Source: Candidatus Thorarchaeota archaeon (GTDB lineage Archaea; Asgardarchaeota; Thorarchaeia; Thorarchaeales; Thorarchaeaceae). From it: a stretch of DNA of 43,016 nt. The DNA is taken from NCBI GenBank assembly GCA_016840855.1, contig JAEORO010000011.1, positions 1 to 43,016 on the forward strand. Reading direction: 5' to 3'. Positions 17,582-38,489 of the stretch are shown here, piece after piece; within the stretch, counting starts at the first letter, position 1; each line of letters opens with the position of its first letter. The notes beneath the pieces are model-generated. The model ran no database searches. It saw nothing but the letters and a program-made list of their open reading frames with translations, and was not told where the DNA came from. A program made the translations under genes and the position numbers.

Positions 17582-18394
17582 CTAGATGCCAACTTTGAAG
17601 ATTAGGGCATCTCGGAGGACTCGCTGGAACATTCGTAGTAGATTTTTGCCCTCTGTAGCAATAGTATCAAACACTGGATAACCTTCCAGATCTAGCATCT
17701 GAACCATATAGTCAATTGGTAAAGCATTGGGAAGATCTCTTTTGTTTAGGGCGACTATGATTGGGAGTGTCGCCATCCGGTCTGTACCAAGAGCAATCCT
17801 TAGTTCTTGTATGGATGCAAGATTCTCATTCATCTGTTCAGGAGTTGAGTCAGCCATGAAAATGATACCATCGCAGTCACGAAGTACCTTGATTCTTTGG
17901 CTAGCATGACGTCTCTGTCCAGCCACAGTAAAGACATCAAACACAATTCTCTCACTCGCTGTGACAGGTACAAAGTCAAAGAAGGTAGTTCTACCAAGCT
18001 CATCATGAATTTCTATAATCTTCCCCTTTGCCAATGATCGGACATTAGCAAATAGCCATCTCAGGGCGGTAGTCTTACCAGAGAGAGAAGGACCATAGAA
18101 GACGATTTTGATGTGAACCCTCCCCACCTCATCCCGTTTGAGAACATGGCCTGGAACGATTTCAGCAGCACTTTGCGGCTTAATACGAGCGTACCGGGCA
18201 TGTTCAGCTGTGACCTCAGGATCAAAATGAATATCTTCACTAGAGGCAATTAATCGACCCATTGGAGTGGGAGTTGGTTCAGCGATTACAGGTTCCATCA
18301 CGGCCATACTTGTATCAACACTAGGCTCCGCTGATATCTCTTTTTCCTCTTTAGGCTTCTTTGAGCGCCGGGTTAATCTGCGAAATACAGACAA
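17582..18394 (-). CDS. MglA-like small GTPase with N-terminal extension
   Basis: KIVFYGPSLSGKTT, RTTFFDF, TVAGQ, NKRD, TIA motifs. Confidence 0.88.
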   Translation of the reverse strand: MSVFRRLTRRSKKPKEEKEISAEPSVDTSMAVMEPVIAEPTPTPMGRLIASSEDIHFDPEVTAEHARYARIKPQSAAEIVPGHVLKRDEVGRVHIKIVFYGPSLSGKTTALRWLFANVRSLAKGKIIEIHDELGRTTFFDFVPVTASERIVFDVFTVAGQRRHASQRIKVLRDCDGIIFMADSTPEQMNENLASIQELRIALGTDRMATLPIIVALNKRDLPNALPIDYMVQMLDLEGYPVFDTIATEGKNLLRMFQRVLRDALIFKVGI

Positions 18395-25460: not shown

Positions 25461-25823
25461 TTAGAGTATCTCTAATAGCACATCAGCAATTCGCCTCATA
25501 TCAACAAAGATAAGACCAATCTGAGCATCAGCTTTTGCCAATACGAGTAGAAGTGCATTTTCACCAACTGATGTCAGAAGGGTATAGCCTCGTTCACCCT
25601 TGACATAGATTTCTTTGAAAACACCACGATCTAATTCGGTTGTTGCTTTCTCACCTAGCGACAAGAGACCAGCACTAATCGCAGCTACACGTTCCTGTTC
25701 AGCTTCTGGTAGAGCTGAAGAAATCATCAGGCCATCTGCAGAAACAAGAGCTGCTCCCTCAACACCTGGTACAGTTTCGAAATCACGAATAGTTTTGTTG
25801 ATGCTATCAACACGACTGGACAT
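25461..25823 (-). CDS. Roadblock/LC7 (MglB-like) protein
   Basis: GVEGAALVSADGLMISSALP...RVAAISAGLLSLG...IYVKGERG...IGLIF; ATG 25823 behind GAGGGTG. Confidence 0.92.
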   Translation of the reverse strand: MSSRVDSINKTIRDFETVPGVEGAALVSADGLMISSALPEAEQERVAAISAGLLSLGEKATTELDRGVFKEIYVKGERGYTLLTSVGENALLLVLAKADAQIGLIFVDMRRIADVLLEIL

Positions 25824-25924
25824 ACTTGCACCCTCTAGCAATCCAAACAAACGCTAGTCAGTGGCCATATATAATAACTTATTGTTGCCCCATATTTTTG
25901 GGCGTATTGATAGGATTTAATTCC

Positions 25925-28900
25925 CTAAACACCGAAGAACTCCTTTACATTAGATTTACTATCTTCTTTCTTTTGTTCGGCTTCTTTCCTCTTATCTTGG
26001 GGTGTGCTATCTCGCTTCCAGCCTATGCTTTCGCCGCGTCTTTTCTTCAAGTATATCCAACCGCCAATAACAACAACTACGCCACCACCAAGTATCCCAA
26101 GCATGAGAAATGGAAAAGGACGAACAAGGACGAATTTGTCGATTGTAAGTGTCAGTGTGTCGTGACCTATTTTTGATGCTGCAATGTGAATGTCAAACAA
26201 GCCGATGTTCTGTCCCGTCCATTCTGCATCTAATATAGCAACGTACAATCCATCGGTTAATTCTTGCACAGTGATTTGACTAGAATTAAGCCACAAGGCA
26301 AATGTTGCAGCCTCGATGTTGTTTCCCACAATATCTGTCAGCCTAATCATAATCTGAACCACATCACCAGCCCAAATTATTCTCTCACTTAATTCAATGC
26401 TTTCAACTGTTATTGAAGGAACGCTTCTCCAAAAGACTGCATTCTCAATAGTAGCTGAACCATTTGAAACAGAGGGGAATGTTGTTGATAGAGCAAGCTT
26501 GCCTGAACCTACTGAACCAGCGACGAATACAGGGTTTGTTCCATCGGTTGCTAGAATTGATAGATTAACCCATACAGAAGAGAAATGACCGGAATAGTTT
26601 ACAGATGAACTCAATATATTAGGCGAGTTCAGAAGTGGATGAGTAGAGTCAACATATGTGATTGATGTACCAGATGGTCCTGATTGATACGAAACTGGCC
26701 ATGGTAACCACGACAAGGAGTCTGAAACTCCAAAGATTTCTAGAATGCCTCCATTACGTACAAATGAGTATAACACACTGCTTGATGAAGAGAGACTTGA
26801 GCCTAATTCGGGAAGGGTATCTGGCTCAACAAGAACAACTTGTCTTAGTGGAAGGAACTGAATGAACTCTGAATAGTTTGTAACTTCGTAGTAATCAAAA
26901 GCAATTCCGAGTGATGCTAAGATAGAAGGCAAGTATGAAGAAGATCCAAGCGCAGCAACTACGCCTATCCCTTGACCGGGGATGTGCGTATCAAATGAAC
27001 TTGTTAGTGGATTAGTAGCTGGAACGTGTGGATATGATGATGGTTCATACAGTCTAATAGATGGATCGCCAAAGAGTATTTGCTGGTTTGCATAATCGCG
27101 AGGGTCACGACCAACTAATGGGTCAGAGTAATCAATGGAAGTTGTGCGAAGACCTTCAGAAAGTGCTTCAGAAATCGTTGAACCTTCACAAAGGGACTGA
27201 GTTAGAAGTACTGAAAGCATGCCAGCTGGACGGAAGTAGACTGTTCGAGGTGCTGCGGTGACCGCCACAGCACCATGTTCCATCAACATAAGGGGTAGTT
27301 CAGTTCCTCCAAGAAGGCAAGCGGTAATTATCACAATGGGACTTCCGATGTTACCAATTGCAGCTTCTAGTTCATGAGTTGATTTTGTGACATGATTTGC
27401 TAGTTCAGCTGAAAATTGAACAGGATTGACGAGTTTGTCATAATCTGTAGGACTCTCTCGAACCTCTACACTTACTTCAAATCCATAAGGAGCATCGGTG
27501 CTTCTCAATGAAAAGAAACCGACACCATTTGGTCGGTCTGGAGGATCACGAGGTAGTACAGTTAAAGTCCCGTGTGTGCTCAGTGACCAGAAAGCAACTT
27601 GAGAATCAAGAGTCTGAAAGACCTCATTCTGCCCCACATGACTCTCAATGGAAAAACCTGCAGCTTCAAGTGGGGTTGTCGTATTTTCAATTTGATATAA
27701 AAGAGGATAATTGTAGTCATTATCTACAAAGGTATCACCATCAGTATATGCGTACATGCTTACCAAAGAGGTGTCAGCTTGGTTAGCACTTCGGAATAGA
27801 AACCGGTGCAAGAGGCCTCTGGCTATAAGAACAGAAGCCATAGTTGATGATGTTGCAGGTATCCTTCCTGGATTGAAATGAGTCTGTAAGGATCTGTCGA
27901 AACTTAATGGAACAAGGGAAGCAGGTGAAATTACTACTATGGACTGAGATGATGTCGAGTTGTAAGCCCCCCTTGATGAAAGGAATGTTTCAAAACGTGC
28001 CTCGGACTCCATCATTGAGAACTTGTTTGGGATTCGTTCATCATACCATCCATTTTCAGCGCGATTCTCGTATTTGTTGATAACATAGATGTTATTGATT
28101 TCGGGACCAATCAAATAAGGAGCCCATGTTTCTTGAGCCCTAGTCGTTAGCTCATTATTATTACCACAGAGTGAAAATACCGGACTTCCATGAGCTGCCG
28201 CAGAAAAAGCAGCTGGCGCAAAGAACTCGTTGTCATCACTCACAGGTACAGTTACAACAACATCGTGAGATCCTGAGATGGACTTTATCGTTGAGGTTAC
28301 CAAAGAGTAGCTAAACAGATTAATGAGAGCCCCATATGAGCTCAGTAGAGCGGGCAATCCAGCATCTTGAATATTTGATGGGTCAACAAGATAGATAGTT
28401 GATACACCAAGTCTGTTTAAAGCCCAGTCAGTTTCTGAGGGGATCTGGTTAGCATACACATAAAGTAGTGGAGCGTTTAGAAGTGATGCAAGTACGGCTG
28501 CATTTGCAGCTGACTCCATGTAGGACTGAAGATCAGAAGGGAGTCTTGATATCGACCATGATAAGTTGATATTGTTCTGCTCTTGATTCGCATTCAGCCA
28601 TGCTGCTATTATGGTCCAATCTCCAGCCGCAGGGTATGGCAGATTAATTACTTCTCGACCGGGATTTGACAAGATACTTCCAGCAGGGGCCCACATCGAA
28701 AGTCGACCATTAGGATCTATAAGAGCAAGATTGAGGTCAGTTGCTGCGTTGTCCCATGTTAATGATACATTCAGCCACTTTGCATTTGATGGAACTGTGA
28801 CAGTTTCAGTGTATCCCGGATGAGATATGACCTCATTATCCAAAGTGGTTGAGTCAAAAACAGCATCACTGGTTATGTTCATTGTCCAAAGTCCATCGGC

Positions 28901-29737
28901 TGTTTTTGGTAACCAGAAATTCAATGGGACTGGGTGAAGGACTGTACTAGGATTCCTTGACCAGTACATTTGAATCAACATTGAGTAGTCAACAACATTG
29001 CCATTTGGATCAATTAGCTCATGCGTAAGAATCTCAGGTCCAGTCCAATTGAATCGGCCCTCTATCCACCCAGCCCACGGGGCTGGTGTAAAGGTGATGC
29101 TTGAAGGAGTGCCTGGAGAAACAGTTCCACCAAACTCAATTGTTTCAGATGCTTGATTTTGAAAAGTATGACTGGCTGCTCCAGTTATTATCGTTGGTGT
29201 AACAAAATCATCTTTCAAAAGTCCAATAACTGCTGTAGAGCTACTACTCCAAGCATTAGCAGCCAAAAGTGATGCAATTTCAGCTGCAGTTGTCCCTGTA
29301 ATTCTAGGATATATTTTCGCACCGATATTATGTTGTAAATCAGCAAGGTAATTCTCAGAAAAATCACCGACAGAGATGGCTTGTGTAATCCCGCCATCAG
29401 GACCTAGATACTCAGACCAGTCTTCCAGCAGCCAAGCTTCGCTCTCAGAATCTTCACTGTAAATAATGGGTGATATGTATTGAGTGCCGTTAAAGTAGAA
29501 GATTGATGTAGGGACTGCAGCCATGTATGCAAATTCATCAATAAGTGAGCTAGGATTTGGTGAAACAAATGCAACCCGCGATAATGGAATCTGATTTGAT
29601 GGTATGTCACTCACGATGTGACCATTGGGCAGCGATTCAAATCTAGAAATGATGAGAGAGCTTGGTATCGGACTCAATGTTCCAAACATAAGAACTACAA
29701 CTAGAATCGATAGTATCTTGTTTCTAGATCTGATCAT
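25925..29737 (-). CDS. Large membrane-anchored surface protein with a C25 (gingipain)-like peptidase domain
   Basis: Signal-like N-terminus from ATG 29737 (AGGAGTG RBS), PPC-like LTWDNAATDLNLALIDPNG, STHG...ITACL...FGDPS, C-terminal TM plus basic tail. Confidence 0.7.
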   Translation of the reverse strand: MIRSRNKILSILVVVLMFGTLSPIPSSLIISRFESLPNGHIVSDIPSNQIPLSRVAFVSPNPSSLIDEFAYMAAVPTSIFYFNGTQYISPIIYSEDSESEAWLLEDWSEYLGPDGGITQAISVGDFSENYLADLQHNIGAKIYPRITGTTAAEIASLLAANAWSSSSTAVIGLLKDDFVTPTIITGAASHTFQNQASETIEFGGTVSPGTPSSITFTPAPWAGWIEGRFNWTGPEILTHELIDPNGNVVDYSMLIQMYWSRNPSTVLHPVPLNFWLPKTADGLWTMNITSDAVFDSTTLDNEVISHPGYTETVTVPSNAKWLNVSLTWDNAATDLNLALIDPNGRLSMWAPAGSILSNPGREVINLPYPAAGDWTIIAAWLNANQEQNNINLSWSISRLPSDLQSYMESAANAAVLASLLNAPLLYVYANQIPSETDWALNRLGVSTIYLVDPSNIQDAGLPALLSSYGALINLFSYSLVTSTIKSISGSHDVVVTVPVSDDNEFFAPAAFSAAAHGSPVFSLCGNNNELTTRAQETWAPYLIGPEINNIYVINKYENRAENGWYDERIPNKFSMMESEARFETFLSSRGAYNSTSSQSIVVISPASLVPLSFDRSLQTHFNPGRIPATSSTMASVLIARGLLHRFLFRSANQADTSLVSMYAYTDGDTFVDNDYNYPLLYQIENTTTPLEAAGFSIESHVGQNEVFQTLDSQVAFWSLSTHGTLTVLPRDPPDRPNGVGFFSLRSTDAPYGFEVSVEVRESPTDYDKLVNPVQFSAELANHVTKSTHELEAAIGNIGSPIVIITACLLGGTELPLMLMEHGAVAVTAAPRTVYFRPAGMLSVLLTQSLCEGSTISEALSEGLRTTSIDYSDPLVGRDPRDYANQQILFGDPSIRLYEPSSYPHVPATNPLTSSFDTHIPGQGIGVVAALGSSSYLPSILASLGIAFDYYEVTNYSEFIQFLPLRQVVLVEPDTLPELGSSLSSSSSVLYSFVRNGGILEIFGVSDSLSWLPWPVSYQSGPSGTSITYVDSTHPLLNSPNILSSSVNYSGHFSSVWVNLSILATDGTNPVFVAGSVGSGKLALSTTFPSVSNGSATIENAVFWRSVPSITVESIELSERIIWAGDVVQIMIRLTDIVGNNIEAATFALWLNSSQITVQELTDGLYVAILDAEWTGQNIGLFDIHIAASKIGHDTLTLTIDKFVLVRPFPFLMLGILGGGVVVVIGGWIYLKKRRGESIGWKRDSTPQDKRKEAEQKKEDSKSNVKEFFGV

Positions 29738-29838
29738 ATGGGGCGCACTCCTTAAGGATTCAAGATGATGAAGAGAATTTACTAAATAGAGTTTTCCCGT
29801 GGAAAGCACCAATGATTCAAAGTGCTCTTTATAGCGGT

Positions 29839-30829: not shown

Positions 30830-31531
30830 CTATCGAGGCATCAAAAGCACAGGATTCTCAAGGAGAGGTCTCACAGAGTCCTTTACGAAGAACTGCTCAT
30901 CACCTACTTGGACTTCTAAAAGCTTTCTCAACTCAAATCGACGTAGGTATCCTACAGCTTGCTCACGTTCTAAATTCAAATCTTTCATCAATTTACTCAA
31001 GCCTTTTTTATCGCCACTGAATTGAGCAAATTTACTAAACACCGAACTCCATTGCATCATAACAAGATAGAGAAGTGTTCGAAGCATACTATCAACATTT
31101 TCGCCAGTTTTTGCTGAAACAGGGAATACTGGAAGACCTGCAAGGAATCTTAGATTTCTTCTCAGCTGATCAATTGGTCTCGACTCTGGAACGTCCTGTT
31201 TATTTGCTGCAACTACACACGGCACACCGGGCAGGAAGAACGCAATTTCTCTGAAGAATAGTTTAGCTCGTGCATCAGATTCAGGATCGACAGAATCGAC
31301 GACAAAGATAATTCCATCAGCACCTTCGCTTAGAATTTTTCGCATTGTACGGAACCGTAGTAAGCCAGGAGTACCAAACATGAAGACATTCAATCCATCC
31401 ACATTTGCCAGACCATGATCCATTGCAATTGTAGTGCCCCTACGCTCAACATTAATGCATGCACCATTAGTAATATGATGAATCATCTGGCTTTTGCCTG
31501 CTTCATAGGGACCTGTCACAACAATCTTCAT
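30830..31531 (-). CDS. Small GTPase of the group-2 MglA/CvnD-like type with C-terminal extension
   Basis: KIVVTGPYEAGKS, TTIAMDHG, FGTPG, NKQD, SAKTG. Confidence 0.88.
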   Translation of the reverse strand: MKIVVTGPYEAGKSQMIHHITNGACINVERRGTTIAMDHGLANVDGLNVFMFGTPGLLRFRTMRKILSEGADGIIFVVDSVDPESDARAKLFFREIAFFLPGVPCVVAANKQDVPESRPIDQLRRNLRFLAGLPVFPVSAKTGENVDSMLRTLLYLVMMQWSSVFSKFAQFSGDKKGLSKLMKDLNLEREQAVGYLRRFELRKLLEVQVGDEQFFVKDSVRPLLENPVLLMPR

Positions 31532-31835: not shown

Positions 31836-32000
31836 ATGTTGGAAACCAAGGCTGAGAAAATTGATGAATTTTGGCTATTTCATGATATTAATGAAAAAGA
31901 AACCATGGAACTTCGTAAATTCATTGATCCAGAGCTTGACCTGAAACCATTGAAAGATATTATGGAACTTTTCGACAAAATCCACGCCTTCTTCAAATAA
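31836..32000 (+). CDS. 54-aa small protein (below the ORF-track cutoff)
   Basis: MLETKAEKIDEFWLFHDINEKETMELRKFIDPELDLKPLKDIMELFDKIHAFFK*, GAGTGA RBS, tandem TAA TAG stops. Confidence 0.6.
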   Translation: MLETKAEKIDEFWLFHDINEKETMELRKFIDPELDLKPLKDIMELFDKIHAFFK

Positions 32001-32008
32001 TAGAGTAA

Positions 32009-32087
32009 GAGACCAGCCGCTTGCGGCGGCAATCCTCAAACATGGTTCCCAGAGGGTTTACCATTGTTCTCACGGGAATTCGGTCTC
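32009..32087 (-). promoter_or_regulatory. Eukaryote-type (form 2) SECIS element of selD
   Basis: GUGA-GAACAAUGGU-AAA-CCC-UCU-GGG-A-ACCAUGUUU-GA: RUGA/GA core, helix II, unpaired AAA, mini-stem; outer helix GAGACCG/UGGUCUC. Confidence 0.82.
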
Positions 32088-33116
32088 GATAAACTGAACT
32101 TCTTGTGCAAGACACGCACAAGGTGATCCTTTAGCTTTTGTAACTCTACCAACAGGCCAACAGGGAAGATTTCTCTTTCCAAGGAAGTCACGAAACACTT
32201 CTTCTTTGCGAGGTTCCAAGAATACAAGCATCCCGCCTGCGGTTTCAGCACCAAAACCAGATGCAAGCTTGTGGCCATAGAACTCTGCTAGTTGAAGAGT
32301 GCCACGGATTACAGGGATTTGATTTATGACTACATCGACACCACTGAGGGAGCTCACATTTCCTGCGTGTCCGAGTAAACCGAATCCTGTTATATCAGTC
32401 GCAGCATGCACTCCGACATCACGCATCGCCTGAGCGACCTCAAGATTGCTGCAAGTCATCAATCGTACCGCAACATCCTGTATTCTTTTCAAATCAGACT
32501 CTTTGAATTTGGATAAGAGTGCATCACGATTCTCATCCTTGAGGTCCCTATATGATCTCATTGCTGATTGTATACCCAATGGTTTTGTCAAGAGAACAAC
32601 ATCTCCGACTTCAGCACCATGTGAATAGACAATTTCATTTGGATGGGCAACACCAAGTGCAATCCCACCAAACACTGGAACAGGATTCGATATCGTTTGA
32701 CCACCAGAGAGCTTTGCGTTATGGCGTTCCATAAAATGCTTCATTCCCTTGAGGACTCCAACGACAATCTCTTCAGGTAATTCTTTTGGATAAGCAAGAA
32801 ACGCCTGAAGCGATATTACATCGGTTACACCCATTGCAAAGACATCATTGGTAGCATTACAAGCAATAATCTCTCCCTGAATGAATGGGTCATCATGGAT
32901 AGGTGTGAAGATGTCTACATTCTCCACAATAGCCACATCATCACTGATAACCCTGACAACAGCATCCTCGCCAATTTCATCAGCTGTCTTCGATCCTGAT
33001 GGAAGTAAGTTTGCTATTTGAAGAAGACGAGTGAGATCACCCTGTTTGACCTTGCAGCTTCAGCCATGAGAAGTTACCATTGCAGTAAGTCGAACTTCCG
33101 GCACTCGGTGACTCAT
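32070..33116 (-). CDS. selD: Selenophosphate synthetase, selenocysteine-containing
   Basis: Frame continues upstream of the tracked ORF: MSHRVPEVRLTAMVTSHG-U(TGA 33060-33062)-SCK...GEDA...; also NDVFAMG, GGQT, LTKPLG, TDITGFGLLGH, ETAGG; start could be GTG 33104. Confidence 0.93.
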
Positions 33117-33254
33117 CCTCCTGTATTCTTTAAGGCAGTTCTGCCCAGCCTCCTTCTGTATGAAGCGAGTAATAAGATTCTGGGTTATTCATACTTCATA
33201 ATCCTTATAGCCAAAATAACAAACCGATGCGTAATTCTGCGAGTGTGATTCGAT

Positions 33255-36574: not shown

Positions 36575-38350
36575 CTAGTCTTGCTTTTTGTCATCTTCCA
36601 TTGTGTCAAGTAATCTTTCAAGTTCAGCGAGGGTTTCACCATTCAGTGGAAGAACTTTATCTTCTTCCTCTTCAGCCACATCCTTCGATGCAGTCCCAGT
36701 TCCACCAACTGAACGGTCCAAAGGACCCAAGATAGTTTCAAGCTCTTCAAGCGATTCAGCATCAATATCCTCTCTAGCTAGAGGCTCGTCATTAATTGGA
36801 ATAGCTTCATCACTCCCAATAGCCTGAAGTGCTGTGTCAATCTCTTCATGTGATGCTTGTTCTATTTCTGTTGCTATGATATCATCAAAGTCATCTGCTT
36901 CAAGGGCTTCAAAGATAATGTCTTTTGCCATCTTCATTGCGTCGGTGTTCTTTTCAACAGCCAGTTCAGGAACATAATCTTCAATAGACAAATCAACTGT
37001 TTCAGGTTCAGATTCCATCGGTGAGGATTCAGGTTCAATTGATACCATTATTTCTTCTGCATATTCAGGTTCAACCAAGACTTCTTCTTTAGGTTCTGTG
37101 GAGATTTCAGGTTCAGGTATGAAATCAGCTTCTATTTGGATATCTACGTTTCCTGGAACCTCAGCAGATTCAGTTGTTGGTATTTCAAACGACTCCGAGC
37201 TGTCAATCTGTGTATCGACTTCTAGCATTTCTACAGGTGATTCAACAACTTCTCCAAGAATCTCTTCTTCTTCTTCTTCAATAATCTCATATTCGTCGAG
37301 ATTCTCAATCACATGGCCCTCTTCATCGACAAATACCTCTTCGATGATTTCCACTGTTTCGTATTCCTCTTCCTCAACCTCTCCTTCTTCGCTAGCGATG
37401 GTGGCCTCTTCAATTTCAACCACTTCATCTCCAACTCCAGCTATTGCCTCCTCTGTAGCCACATCAGTGAATTTCAGTAGCTCCGATGCAGGTAGGTCTG
37501 GAAGAGCGACCCCAACATATTGGGCTGCTGCAGTCATTAGGATTCGTAGCATCTCATCTCGACGGTCCTTATCAATGGCAACCATTGGAAAGGTGGGAAT
37601 ACCTAGTATCTTTTGAACAACTTCAGGTTTCATTGCATTTGGCTTATCCTGCTTATTTGCCATAGCAAATACTGGAACCTTCGGAGCATCTCTTTTGATT
37701 AGCTTAAGGATATCCTTGCTAATAATCACATTTCTCAGTGTTGAATCGCAAACTAAGAAAATGACATCAGCTCCATGGAAATAAAATCGCCATAAGGTTC
37801 GAAAGCGTTCCTGACCAGCAAAATCCCATAGAACAAGTGAGTAGTTACCAAATCGTATGTTTTCAACTGTTTCAAGATTCAAAGCTATCGTTGGAACATA
37901 TTGGAGAGGTGGAGTATCTCCTAGAAGTAGGTGTAAGGTAGTTGTTTTTCCAACACCACCTTCTCCCACAAGTGCAATCTTAAGTCGAGTAGTGATGGAT
38001 GGTTCTATTAGTGCAGTGTATTTGTTGATTGCACCCTCAATACCTTCCTTTTTGAAATATGCTCTAAGTGCTTTCAATGCCACATCGAGTTTTTCAAAAA
38101 TACTCGCTTCATCCTCACCTTTGTCAGTCACAAAGACAAGAACAGAGTCTTCAATCCAATCTTTGCCAAGAAACTTGTGATCTCCAATTATTAATGGTAG
38201 TTCTGAAACTTGACCATGTTCTGTCCTTAACTCCTCTCTAGTAGAGATGAACTCATATAACGCCTCTTCTTTCACTTCGACTGGCCAATATTGAGTTCTG
38301 GCTATTATTTGCCGGGTGGAAATGCGGACAAGGAAGGTATTGTGAATCAC
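36575..38350 (-). CDS. Longin-like domain plus Arf-like small GTPase plus long acidic tail
   Basis: GEGGVGKTT, PTIALNLETV, WDFAGQERFRTLWRFYF, NKQD; GTG 38350 behind GGTGAT; C-terminal half is E/D-rich. Confidence 0.85.
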   Translation of the reverse strand: MIHNTFLVRISTRQIIARTQYWPVEVKEEALYEFISTREELRTEHGQVSELPLIIGDHKFLGKDWIEDSVLVFVTDKGEDEASIFEKLDVALKALRAYFKKEGIEGAINKYTALIEPSITTRLKIALVGEGGVGKTTTLHLLLGDTPPLQYVPTIALNLETVENIRFGNYSLVLWDFAGQERFRTLWRFYFHGADVIFLVCDSTLRNVIISKDILKLIKRDAPKVPVFAMANKQDKPNAMKPEVVQKILGIPTFPMVAIDKDRRDEMLRILMTAAAQYVGVALPDLPASELLKFTDVATEEAIAGVGDEVVEIEEATIASEEGEVEEEEYETVEIIEEVFVDEEGHVIENLDEYEIIEEEEEEILGEVVESPVEMLEVDTQIDSSESFEIPTTESAEVPGNVDIQIEADFIPEPEISTEPKEEVLVEPEYAEEIMVSIEPESSPMESEPETVDLSIEDYVPELAVEKNTDAMKMAKDIIFEALEADDFDDIIATEIEQASHEEIDTALQAIGSDEAIPINDEPLAREDIDAESLEELETILGPLDRSVGGTGTASKDVAEEEEDKVLPLNGETLAELERLLDTMEDDKKQD

Positions 38351-38489
38351 TTCAGTATCACCAAGTTCTATCAAACCTAGGGGATGTTTGCTGAGTCCTT
38401 TTTGGGATTAAGATAATCCTTTAGGTATAGATTAAGCTGTGCTGTGTGTATATTTTGATATTCTGTGTATCTATTGGAGAGGATTAAAG

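Follow-up and report, generated by a model that had tools for sequence, protein, structure and literature searches.

The selD locus

The window, a stretch of 43,016 nucleotides that makes up positions 1 to 43,016 of contig JAEORO010000011.1 from a Candidatus Thorarchaeota archaeon, contains on its minus strand a gene for the selenoprotein selenophosphate synthetase (selD), whose coding end is overlaid by a selenocysteine insertion sequence (SECIS). The gene, its selenocysteine (Sec) codon and the nearest convergent reading frame are as follows:

32070..33116, minus strand: selD (selenophosphate synthetase) coding sequence, a selenoprotein gene of 348 codons plus stop, identified by translation and by NCBIfam and PDB matches
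33060..33062, minus strand: Sec codon UGA, codon 19, in the context HG-U-SCK, identified by translation and by the same TGA in 7/7 orthologues
31836..32000, plus strand: convergent ORF of 54 codons, given for context only, ending 9 nt beyond the SECIS

The selD gene starts with an ATG at 33116 and ends with a TGA at 32072..32070, and its Sec TGA (33062..33060) is the sole in-frame TGA, lying 990 nt upstream of the stop TGA, at the distance given for an internal UGA in the initial annotation of this DNA. The encoded protein passes the NCBIfam equivalog model NF010705 with 302.3 bits (cut-off 291) and TIGR00476 with 213.6 bits (cut-off 125), and its closest solved structures are selenophosphate synthetases in PDB (E 2.4e-40). 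It thereby has the marks of a SelD protein, namely agreement with a curated family model and a Sec or Cys residue in the N-terminal glycine-rich loop. A C-terminal extension was considered as a source of the codons overlaid by the RNA and was rejected, since the NCBIfam SelD profile extends to residue 344 of 348, leaving no obvious extension; the PDB alignments end at residue 325 and are uninformative on the tail. Among the orthologues described below, the selD start of L004 as set by tblastn (L004 1501-1512) is followed by an in-frame TAG at codon 4, suggesting that the true start is probably a few codons downstream.

The content of the window is Asgard-like, including small GTPases, a Roadblock/LC7 protein, RtcB, an EF-2-like factor and a class I aminoacyl-tRNA synthetase, and no other gene of the Sec machinery is present in it. 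In each of the seven loci compared here, selD is followed in the same orientation by a gene for a small GTPase of 233 residues (Ras/Arf-like; 30830-31531, minus strand, in the window), a case of conserved synteny, and three further GTPase ORFs of the Arf/Ras/Roc type (17582-18394, 36575-38374) and a Roadblock/LC7 gene (25461-25850) are found elsewhere in the window. An ORF of 1,295 codons (25925-29812, minus strand) matches no Pfam family at E<=1e-5. The convergent 54-codon ORF (31836-32000, plus strand) matches no NCBIfam or Pfam family; its protein sequence is conserved in L001, L002 and L004 (82-codon form). L003, L005 and L006, which lack it, have about 140-240 nt of unrelated spacer between the element and the next gene, that of a conserved small GTPase.

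In the divergent selD-rtcB intergenic region, an invariant GCTATAAG (TATA-box-like) precedes the selD ATG by about 85 nt in 7/7 loci (~33198-33205, minus strand, in the window) and is followed by a conserved TGTGAAGTGAG-like stretch. Judging from these motifs, the two are probably the selD promoter, which would imply a leader of about 55-60 nt. The leader region also contains a hairpin 15-35 nt upstream of the selD start (33132-33146, minus strand, in the window), which covaries and is present in 6/7 loci (absent in L006), with stems GGCAG/CUGCC in the window, GAGC/GCUC in L001, GGCA/UGCC in L003, CAGGAUU/AAUCCUG in L004 and GGGC/GCCC in L005. This 5' hairpin has no SECIS features (no RUGA/GA core, no AA motif).

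Architecture of the SECIS element

The 79-nt RNA 32087..32009 (minus strand) is a eukaryote-like type II SECIS with a GUGA...GA kink-turn-type core, located at -15 to +61 nt relative to the selD stop. Its unconstrained fold (MFE -29.2 kcal/mol, z = -2.73, as good in 1/200 shuffles) matches the shape drawn in the initial annotation, which had placed a eukaryote-type SECIS at exactly these coordinates; the element lies on the minus strand, is of type II, and is conserved in six orthologous loci. From 5' to 3', its parts are:

32081..32087, minus strand: 5' strand of the basal helix P1, GAGACCG, within the codons Glu-Thr-(Glu), from the fold
32075..32080, minus strand: 5' strand of the lower stem (kink-turn C-stem), AAUUCC with one U bulged, within the codons Glu-Phe-Pro
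32070..32074, minus strand: kink-turn loop C-G-U and GA of the tandem G.A/A.G, including the stop UGA 32072..32070
32060..32069, minus strand: 5' strand of helix II, GAACAAUGGU, with one bulged A, from the fold; 5/9 pairs changed on both sides
32057..32059, minus strand: unpaired AAA (the SECIS AA motif), AA being present atop helix II in 7/7
32048..32056, minus strand: apical mini-stem CCC-UCU-GGG, a type II feature, from the fold; a C/G mini-stem of 2-3 bp in 7/7
32038..32046, minus strand: 3' strand of helix II, from the fold and pair counting
32036..32037, minus strand: 3' GA of the core quartet (G60 and A61 of alignment A1), invariant in 7/7
32031..32035, minus strand: 3' strand of the lower stem (C-stem), GGAUU, helix 2 of the pair counting
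32016..32030, minus strand: third arm P3, a 5-bp hairpin with the loop N-GCRA (GNRA-like), from the fold and alignment
32009..32015, minus strand: 3' strand of the basal helix P1, UGGUCUC, from the fold and pair counting

Helix II of the window element consists of 9 bp with one bulged A, below which GUGA and GA are unpaired. The gene-end position, core, adenines, mini-stem and lower stem are those by which type II Asgard SECIS are recognized in sequence and structure, and the element does not match the eukaryotic SECIS models of Rfam. An Infernal-type scan, suggested in the initial annotation as a check, retrieved no SECIS family from Rfam: there was no match in the whole window at the gathering score, and a permissive scan of 31850-32250 gave no SECIS family at E<=10. 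Three weak matches (mir-329, PK-PYVV and ClpQY promoter; E 1.1-4.1) were set aside as chance.

Simple kink-turns consist of a C-stem, a 3-nt bulge and tandem sheared G.A/A.G pairs, followed by a non-canonical stem. By these sequence rules, from which the G.A/A.G pairs and the kink were read as opposed to computed, the core of the window element would fit a simple kink-turn with a CC/GG C-stem, the loop C-G-U and tandem G.A/A.G pairs. The kink-turn sequence pattern CC / C-R-U / GA ... GA / GG is invariant in 7/7.

The third arm, a hairpin that the initial annotation had also drawn, makes the element a three-way junction, and its conservation supports that drawing, with 94.3% of P3 cells paired and 2/5 pairs changed on both sides. 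The P3 loop is 5 nt long (N-GCRA), its G, C and final A being invariant in 7/7 above a stem that covaries. Similar to a GNRA tetraloop enlarged by one base, the loop is a candidate for a protein or tertiary contact.

Conservation and covariation

The comparison set consists of the window and six selD loci (L001-L006) from Thorarchaeota or uncultured-archaeon MAGs, identified in one contig scan in which 93 stretches matched and 6 were confirmed as selD loci, all with at least 66% protein identity to the window SelD (95, 93, 83, 73, 68 and 66%). The seven sequences represent one class, to the exclusion of Loki, Sif and Cys-type selD DNA, and three of them are at least 93% identical in protein. 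The Sec TGA, the element, and a UGA within its core are present in 7/7. In a MAFFT alignment of 96 columns, helix II is almost wholly rewritten, while all sequences agree in the core T-G-A, the 3' G-A, the CC/GG stem and most positions of the basal helix. RNAalifold, applied to a sequence-only alignment, gave the same architecture, with 26 pairs, 9 of which have compensatory changes.

In a 29-pair structure, 89.2% of 203 cells (7 sequences) are paired, compared with 82.8 +/- 1.3% in a column-shuffle control (0/500 reach the observed value) and 32.0-45.5% when the structure is slid by 1-3 columns, a contrast that is inflated because the structure was derived from the window sequence. Changes on both sides are present in 8 pairs (helix II, five; side hairpin, two; lower stem, one), a count that is reached by 14/500 column shuffles. 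The seven pairs of P1 (GAGACCG/UGGUCUC) are paired in 100% of cells, with 2 pairs varying on one side, and helix 2 (the lower stem) is paired in 94.3%, with pair 18-65 being A-U in 4 sequences and G-C in 2. The mini-stem never covaries and 5/7 basal-helix pairs never vary, so that these invariant parts provide no covariation evidence.

The apical hairpins of all seven sequences, folded in isolation, form helix II plus the mini-stem, with a helix II of 6-9 bp and AA at its top (7/7 in both respects). For the complete element, unconstrained MFE folding gives the shared architecture in only 4/7 sequences; when the six core bases are barred from pairing, 7/7 take the common three-way shape at 0.0-4.6 kcal/mol above the MFE, with the C-stem formed in 6/7 (not in L004).

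A strict descriptor (RUGA, 2-bp C-stem, closed hairpin of at least 7 bp, AA and GA) matches only the selD site on both strands of the 43-kb window, and gives 17 matches in 80 dinucleotide shuffles (0.21 per shuffle). It was written after the element had been seen and is biased toward it, and therefore counts for little; the comparative evidence is stronger for a non-chance origin. A relaxed descriptor gave extra sites at 26862-26914 and 28190-22 (plus strand), antisense to the ORF at 25925-29812 (minus strand), which were judged to be chance. A covariance model (R1) built from the seven sequences retrieves exactly the 7 selD 3' ends, with 78-98 bits, and has no further match at E<=10 in 67,253 bases, including the window. 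According to this model and the strict descriptor, the window contains no second SECIS or other selenoprotein gene, and across the 7 loci no second conserved 3' element follows the SECIS.

At the protein level, a search returned 6,068 database proteins at E<=1e-20, the best 120 of which have 64-93% identity. Most of these best 120 have a length of 296 residues, since gene callers place the start downstream of the Sec codon, and annotators should note that selD here has 348 codons as against the 288-296 given by gene callers. Among the same 120, 117 end in [IVL][EKQ][TA]xFx and stop there (the IETxFx tail), the last residue being P in 106 and L in 11. These tails fit a putatively widespread ...GAGAC-NNN-UUC-NNR-UGA layout, in which the stop codon is invisible in proteins. 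Two nearly full-length homologues, P0088 and P0101 (343 and 346 aa), show C at the Sec position, yet keep the tail (IQTDFP and IEADFPL, respectively), and may be either true Cys forms or annotated Sec displayed as C.

The stop codon and last codons of selD

The selD stop UGA (32072..32070, minus strand) is also the UGA of the SECIS core GUGA, the last five codons (Glu-Thr-Glu-Phe-Pro) provide the 5' sides of the two lower helices, and the stretch from -15 nt to +10 nt around the stop is all SECIS 5' strand. The initial annotation had described the stop as the UGA of the RUGA motif, with the 5' strands of the lower helices in coding sequence, and had called for an alignment of Asgard selD 3' ends; both observations extend to the six orthologous loci. 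All seven sequences end in ...TTC CC[A/G] TGA, with the stop UGA lying in [A/G]UGA inside a covarying SECIS, and the core UGA (T25, G26 and A27 of alignment A1) is invariant in 7/7. The base preceding it is G in the window and L001 (GUGA, 2/7) and A in the other five (AUGA, 5/7). The simplest reason for the stop always being UGA is that these three bases are core SECIS nucleotides, and there is no evidence for a regulatory role of the overlap beyond keeping the core triplet. The dual role also bears on a reporter assay proposed in the initial annotation, since changing the stop UGA to UAA would alter the core G of a G.A pair as well, and cannot separate the two roles.

Across the 7 selD genes, a very small sample for such a comparison of codons, the codon is identical in only 15 of the 174 columns where a degenerate amino acid is identical. 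Of the last five codons, GAG and TTC are the same in every gene, and where substitutions are seen the pairs are retained, with ACC->ACU giving G.U, and GAA->GAG or GGG being compensated by U->C on the other strand. This codon pattern is no more than suggestive of an RNA constraint on the last five codons, and the conserved IETEFP tail could be partly due to protein constraint. Genome compaction was rejected as a cause of the overlap, since the 140-240 nt of free spacer in L003, L005 and L006 indicate that it is not forced by lack of room.

Past the selD UGA, the next in-frame stop follows directly in L003; the window and L001 reach it after 3 codons, L005 after 8 and L004 after 29, and in L002 and L006 it is much further downstream. 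The in-frame UAA three codons past the stop in the window and L001 overlaps the AAA motif (window 32058-32072, minus strand), and L003 (2545-2550) has a tandem UGA-UGA; neither the tandem stop nor the downstream UAA is conserved in all seven.

Proposed function and alternative readings

The sequence, position, conservation and covariation of the element point to its being the Sec insertion element of the Thorarchaeota selD mRNA, an Asgard eukaryote-like type II SECIS that forms a three-way junction and overlies the gene end (probability roughly 0.8), and the function in Sec insertion, the binding partner and the unfolding at termination are inferred. The folded SECIS would recruit the Sec-specific elongation factor, either directly or via a kink-turn binder, allowing the ribosome to read UGA19, 990 nt upstream, as Sec. 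When the terminal UGA is in the A site, the channel of the ribosome would, by ordinary ribosome geometry, hold the basal-helix, C-stem and core strands and much of the helix II strand. In the last ~10 codons, a ribosome would melt the basal helix, C-stem and core along with the helix II 5' strand; with no SECIS at the terminal UGA at that moment, a release factor would terminate translation normally, and the SECIS would refold once the ribosome leaves. The stop would stay UGA as an indispensable core nucleotide triplet.

The proposal in the initial annotation that the terminal UGA escapes recoding as the ribosome melts the SECIS is plausible from this geometry, but is not new, having already been argued for Loki in the text of Mariotti et al. 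(PMC4989117). Its wider formulation, that the overlap is a built-in solution to the use of UGA for both Sec and stop, is not supported as stated. UGA ends 12 of the 33 long ORFs in the window (TAG 12, TAA 9), so that ordinary genes need no such device, and since UGA is an ordinary stop here, the overlap is not the organism's general way of dual UGA use. The selD overlap is the extreme case of a published minimal-distance requirement. The suggested throttle on trailing ribosomes is possible but unsupported, and would probably be weak, since the element would be unfolded only in the last ~3% of each ribosome's transit.

It is unlikely that the overlap has itself been selected as an adaptive coupling, in which the terminating ribosome would dismantle the SECIS complex, ensure termination, ration Sec insertion behind it and thereby self-limit SelD. 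Such a coupling would be in keeping with an overlap that is invariant in 7/7 even where 140-240 nt of free spacer follow, with a tail common to 117 of the best 120 homologues, and with the lack of a conserved back-up stop (the next in-frame stop lying 0 to >60 codons downstream). The invariance is, however, more simply explained by the core triplet together with 5' strands fixed by RNA and protein; the SECIS would be unfolded only with a ribosome in the last ~10 of 348 codons, a weak effect unless ribosome density is high; and other Asgard selenoprotein stops are described in the text of PMC4989117 as near but outside the core, with varied stop codons. An extension of the idea, in which terminating ribosomes would strip or reset the SECIS complex, gating Sec decoding at codon 19 and self-limiting SelD, with the side hairpin as a factor-docking site, is an unlikely one. 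If true, production of the enzyme that supplies the selenium donor would be tied to its own translation via ribosome traffic at the stop.

Three further readings have lower probabilities still. An L7Ae-bound kink-turn acting in mRNA stability or autoregulation, or a transcription termination signal, would account for the lack of an Rfam SECIS match, for a core that equals the generic kink-turn consensus, and for the U-rich sequence after the element in some loci. This reading is very unlikely given the location of the element, in 7/7, at the 3' end of a gene that contains a Sec UGA, the presence of AA and a mini-stem at SECIS spacing, the agreement with the Thorarchaeia selD SECIS described in the text of PMC11227280, the lack of any other candidate in the window or loci, and a U-tract that is not conserved (L006). 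Less probable again is a different signal, a 5'-UTR or intragenic structure, driving the recoding of UGA19 with the 3' element as an accessory, for which the small covarying hairpin upstream of the start codon in 6/7 loci would be the candidate, and one methanogen gene with a SECIS in its 5' UTR (text of PMC4989117) the precedent. That hairpin, however, shows neither a RUGA/GA core nor an AA motif, and L006 has the Sec UGA but no such hairpin; the relaxed-descriptor matches that L002 and L004 have close to their 5' ends occupy non-homologous positions. The smallest probability attaches to the terminal UGA being partly read as Sec to give an extended SelD isoform, as might be imagined for a UGA on a SECIS-bearing mRNA, where the extension in the window would be only 3 residues before a UAA. 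Neither the length nor the sequence of the extension is conserved across the 7 sequences, the widely differing next in-frame stops make a programmed extension unlikely, and the SECIS could presumably not be folded while a ribosome is on the terminal codon.

Relation to known SECIS elements

With the element taken as the selD SECIS, most of its properties have precedents in print. In the text of Mariotti et al. (2016; PMC4989117), lokiSECIS elements are reported to lie close to or overlap coding ends, the AUGA of the Loki VhuU.1 SECIS also serving as the UGA stop of the gene. Many Loki selenoprotein genes end in UGA, and the proximity of the SECIS was argued to preclude recoding, in line with a minimal-distance rule according to which the distant upstream HdrA always ends in UAA or UAG; the SPS (selD) lokiSECIS was described as type II-like. 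According to the text of Huang et al. (2024; PMC11227280), Lokiarchaeia selenoprotein UGA stops often overlap the AUGA motif, and selD SECIS are mainly of the type II form and generally have G[A/U]G_C[U/A]C lower stems, those of Thorarchaeia being type II with GUGA_GA cores and [U/A][A/G]AA bulges. Standard eukaryotic SECIS tools fail on Asgard elements, as both texts state (PMC4989117, PMC11227280), and SBP2 is described as not found in Asgard archaea (texts of PMC4989117 and PMC9723677).

Because both the element and the idea are in print (2016, restated 2024), the present finding mainly confirms a known principle: the stop-in-SECIS arrangement exists and is conserved, but belongs to a phenomenon already published for Asgard archaea. 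Some details are possibly undescribed, namely the three-way junction with its GNRA-like hairpin and the RNA overlay on the last five codons. In the text of PMC4989117 and PMC11227280, as distinct from their supplementary SECIS tables and figures, no mention was found of the side hairpin (with its invariant N-GCRA loop) or three-way junction, of the selD stop being the core UGA in every case, or of the five-codon overlay.

It has been proposed that Asgard SECIS link the archaeal to the eukaryotic decoding of selenocysteine, and that the ancestral type II SECIS of eukaryotes was carried by selD. The present locus provides a clean, conserved example of a SECIS packed on a coding end, and of why an adjacent terminal UGA is safe. 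A practical product is the small covariance model for the Thorarchaeota selD SECIS, and the conserved side hairpin and the predicted canonical kink-turn geometry could guide binding studies.

The closest known system is the Asgard type II selD SECIS (text of PMC11227280; SPS lokiSECIS, text of PMC4989117), which shares the gene family, the gene-end position and the mini-stem. With the reported Thorarchaeia selD SECIS in particular, the sequences studied here share the GUGA_GA/AUGA_GA core, the [U/A][A/G]AA bulge and the GAG...CUC lower stem (PMC11227280, text). The window element is one of these Asgard type II selD elements, from which it differs in nothing essential. The Loki VhuU.1 SECIS has the same stop-in-core overlap, and the same escape-from-recoding argument was made for it, but it belongs to a different gene and class and is a type I element (9-bp stem, 11-nt loop) described as a single extreme case (PMC4989117, text), whereas here every sampled member of the selD clade has the overlap. 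Eukaryotic type II SECIS (e.g. that of SEPHS2) are alike in their AUGA/GUGA...GA quartet, unpaired AA, mini-stem and action at a distance, but are located deep within the 3' UTR, with a longer helix II and internal loop, and have SBP2 as their binding protein. Euryarchaeal SECIS (Methanococcales, GAA_A bulge) share the 3'-end location in an archaeal selenoprotein mRNA, in contrast to which the window element has a kink-turn-type core and is without the GAA_A bulge or the G-C-rich upper stem. Finally, the element fits in 7/7 the pattern of the simple kink-turns bound by L7Ae-family proteins (box C/D, Kt-7), a likeness known here from sequence.
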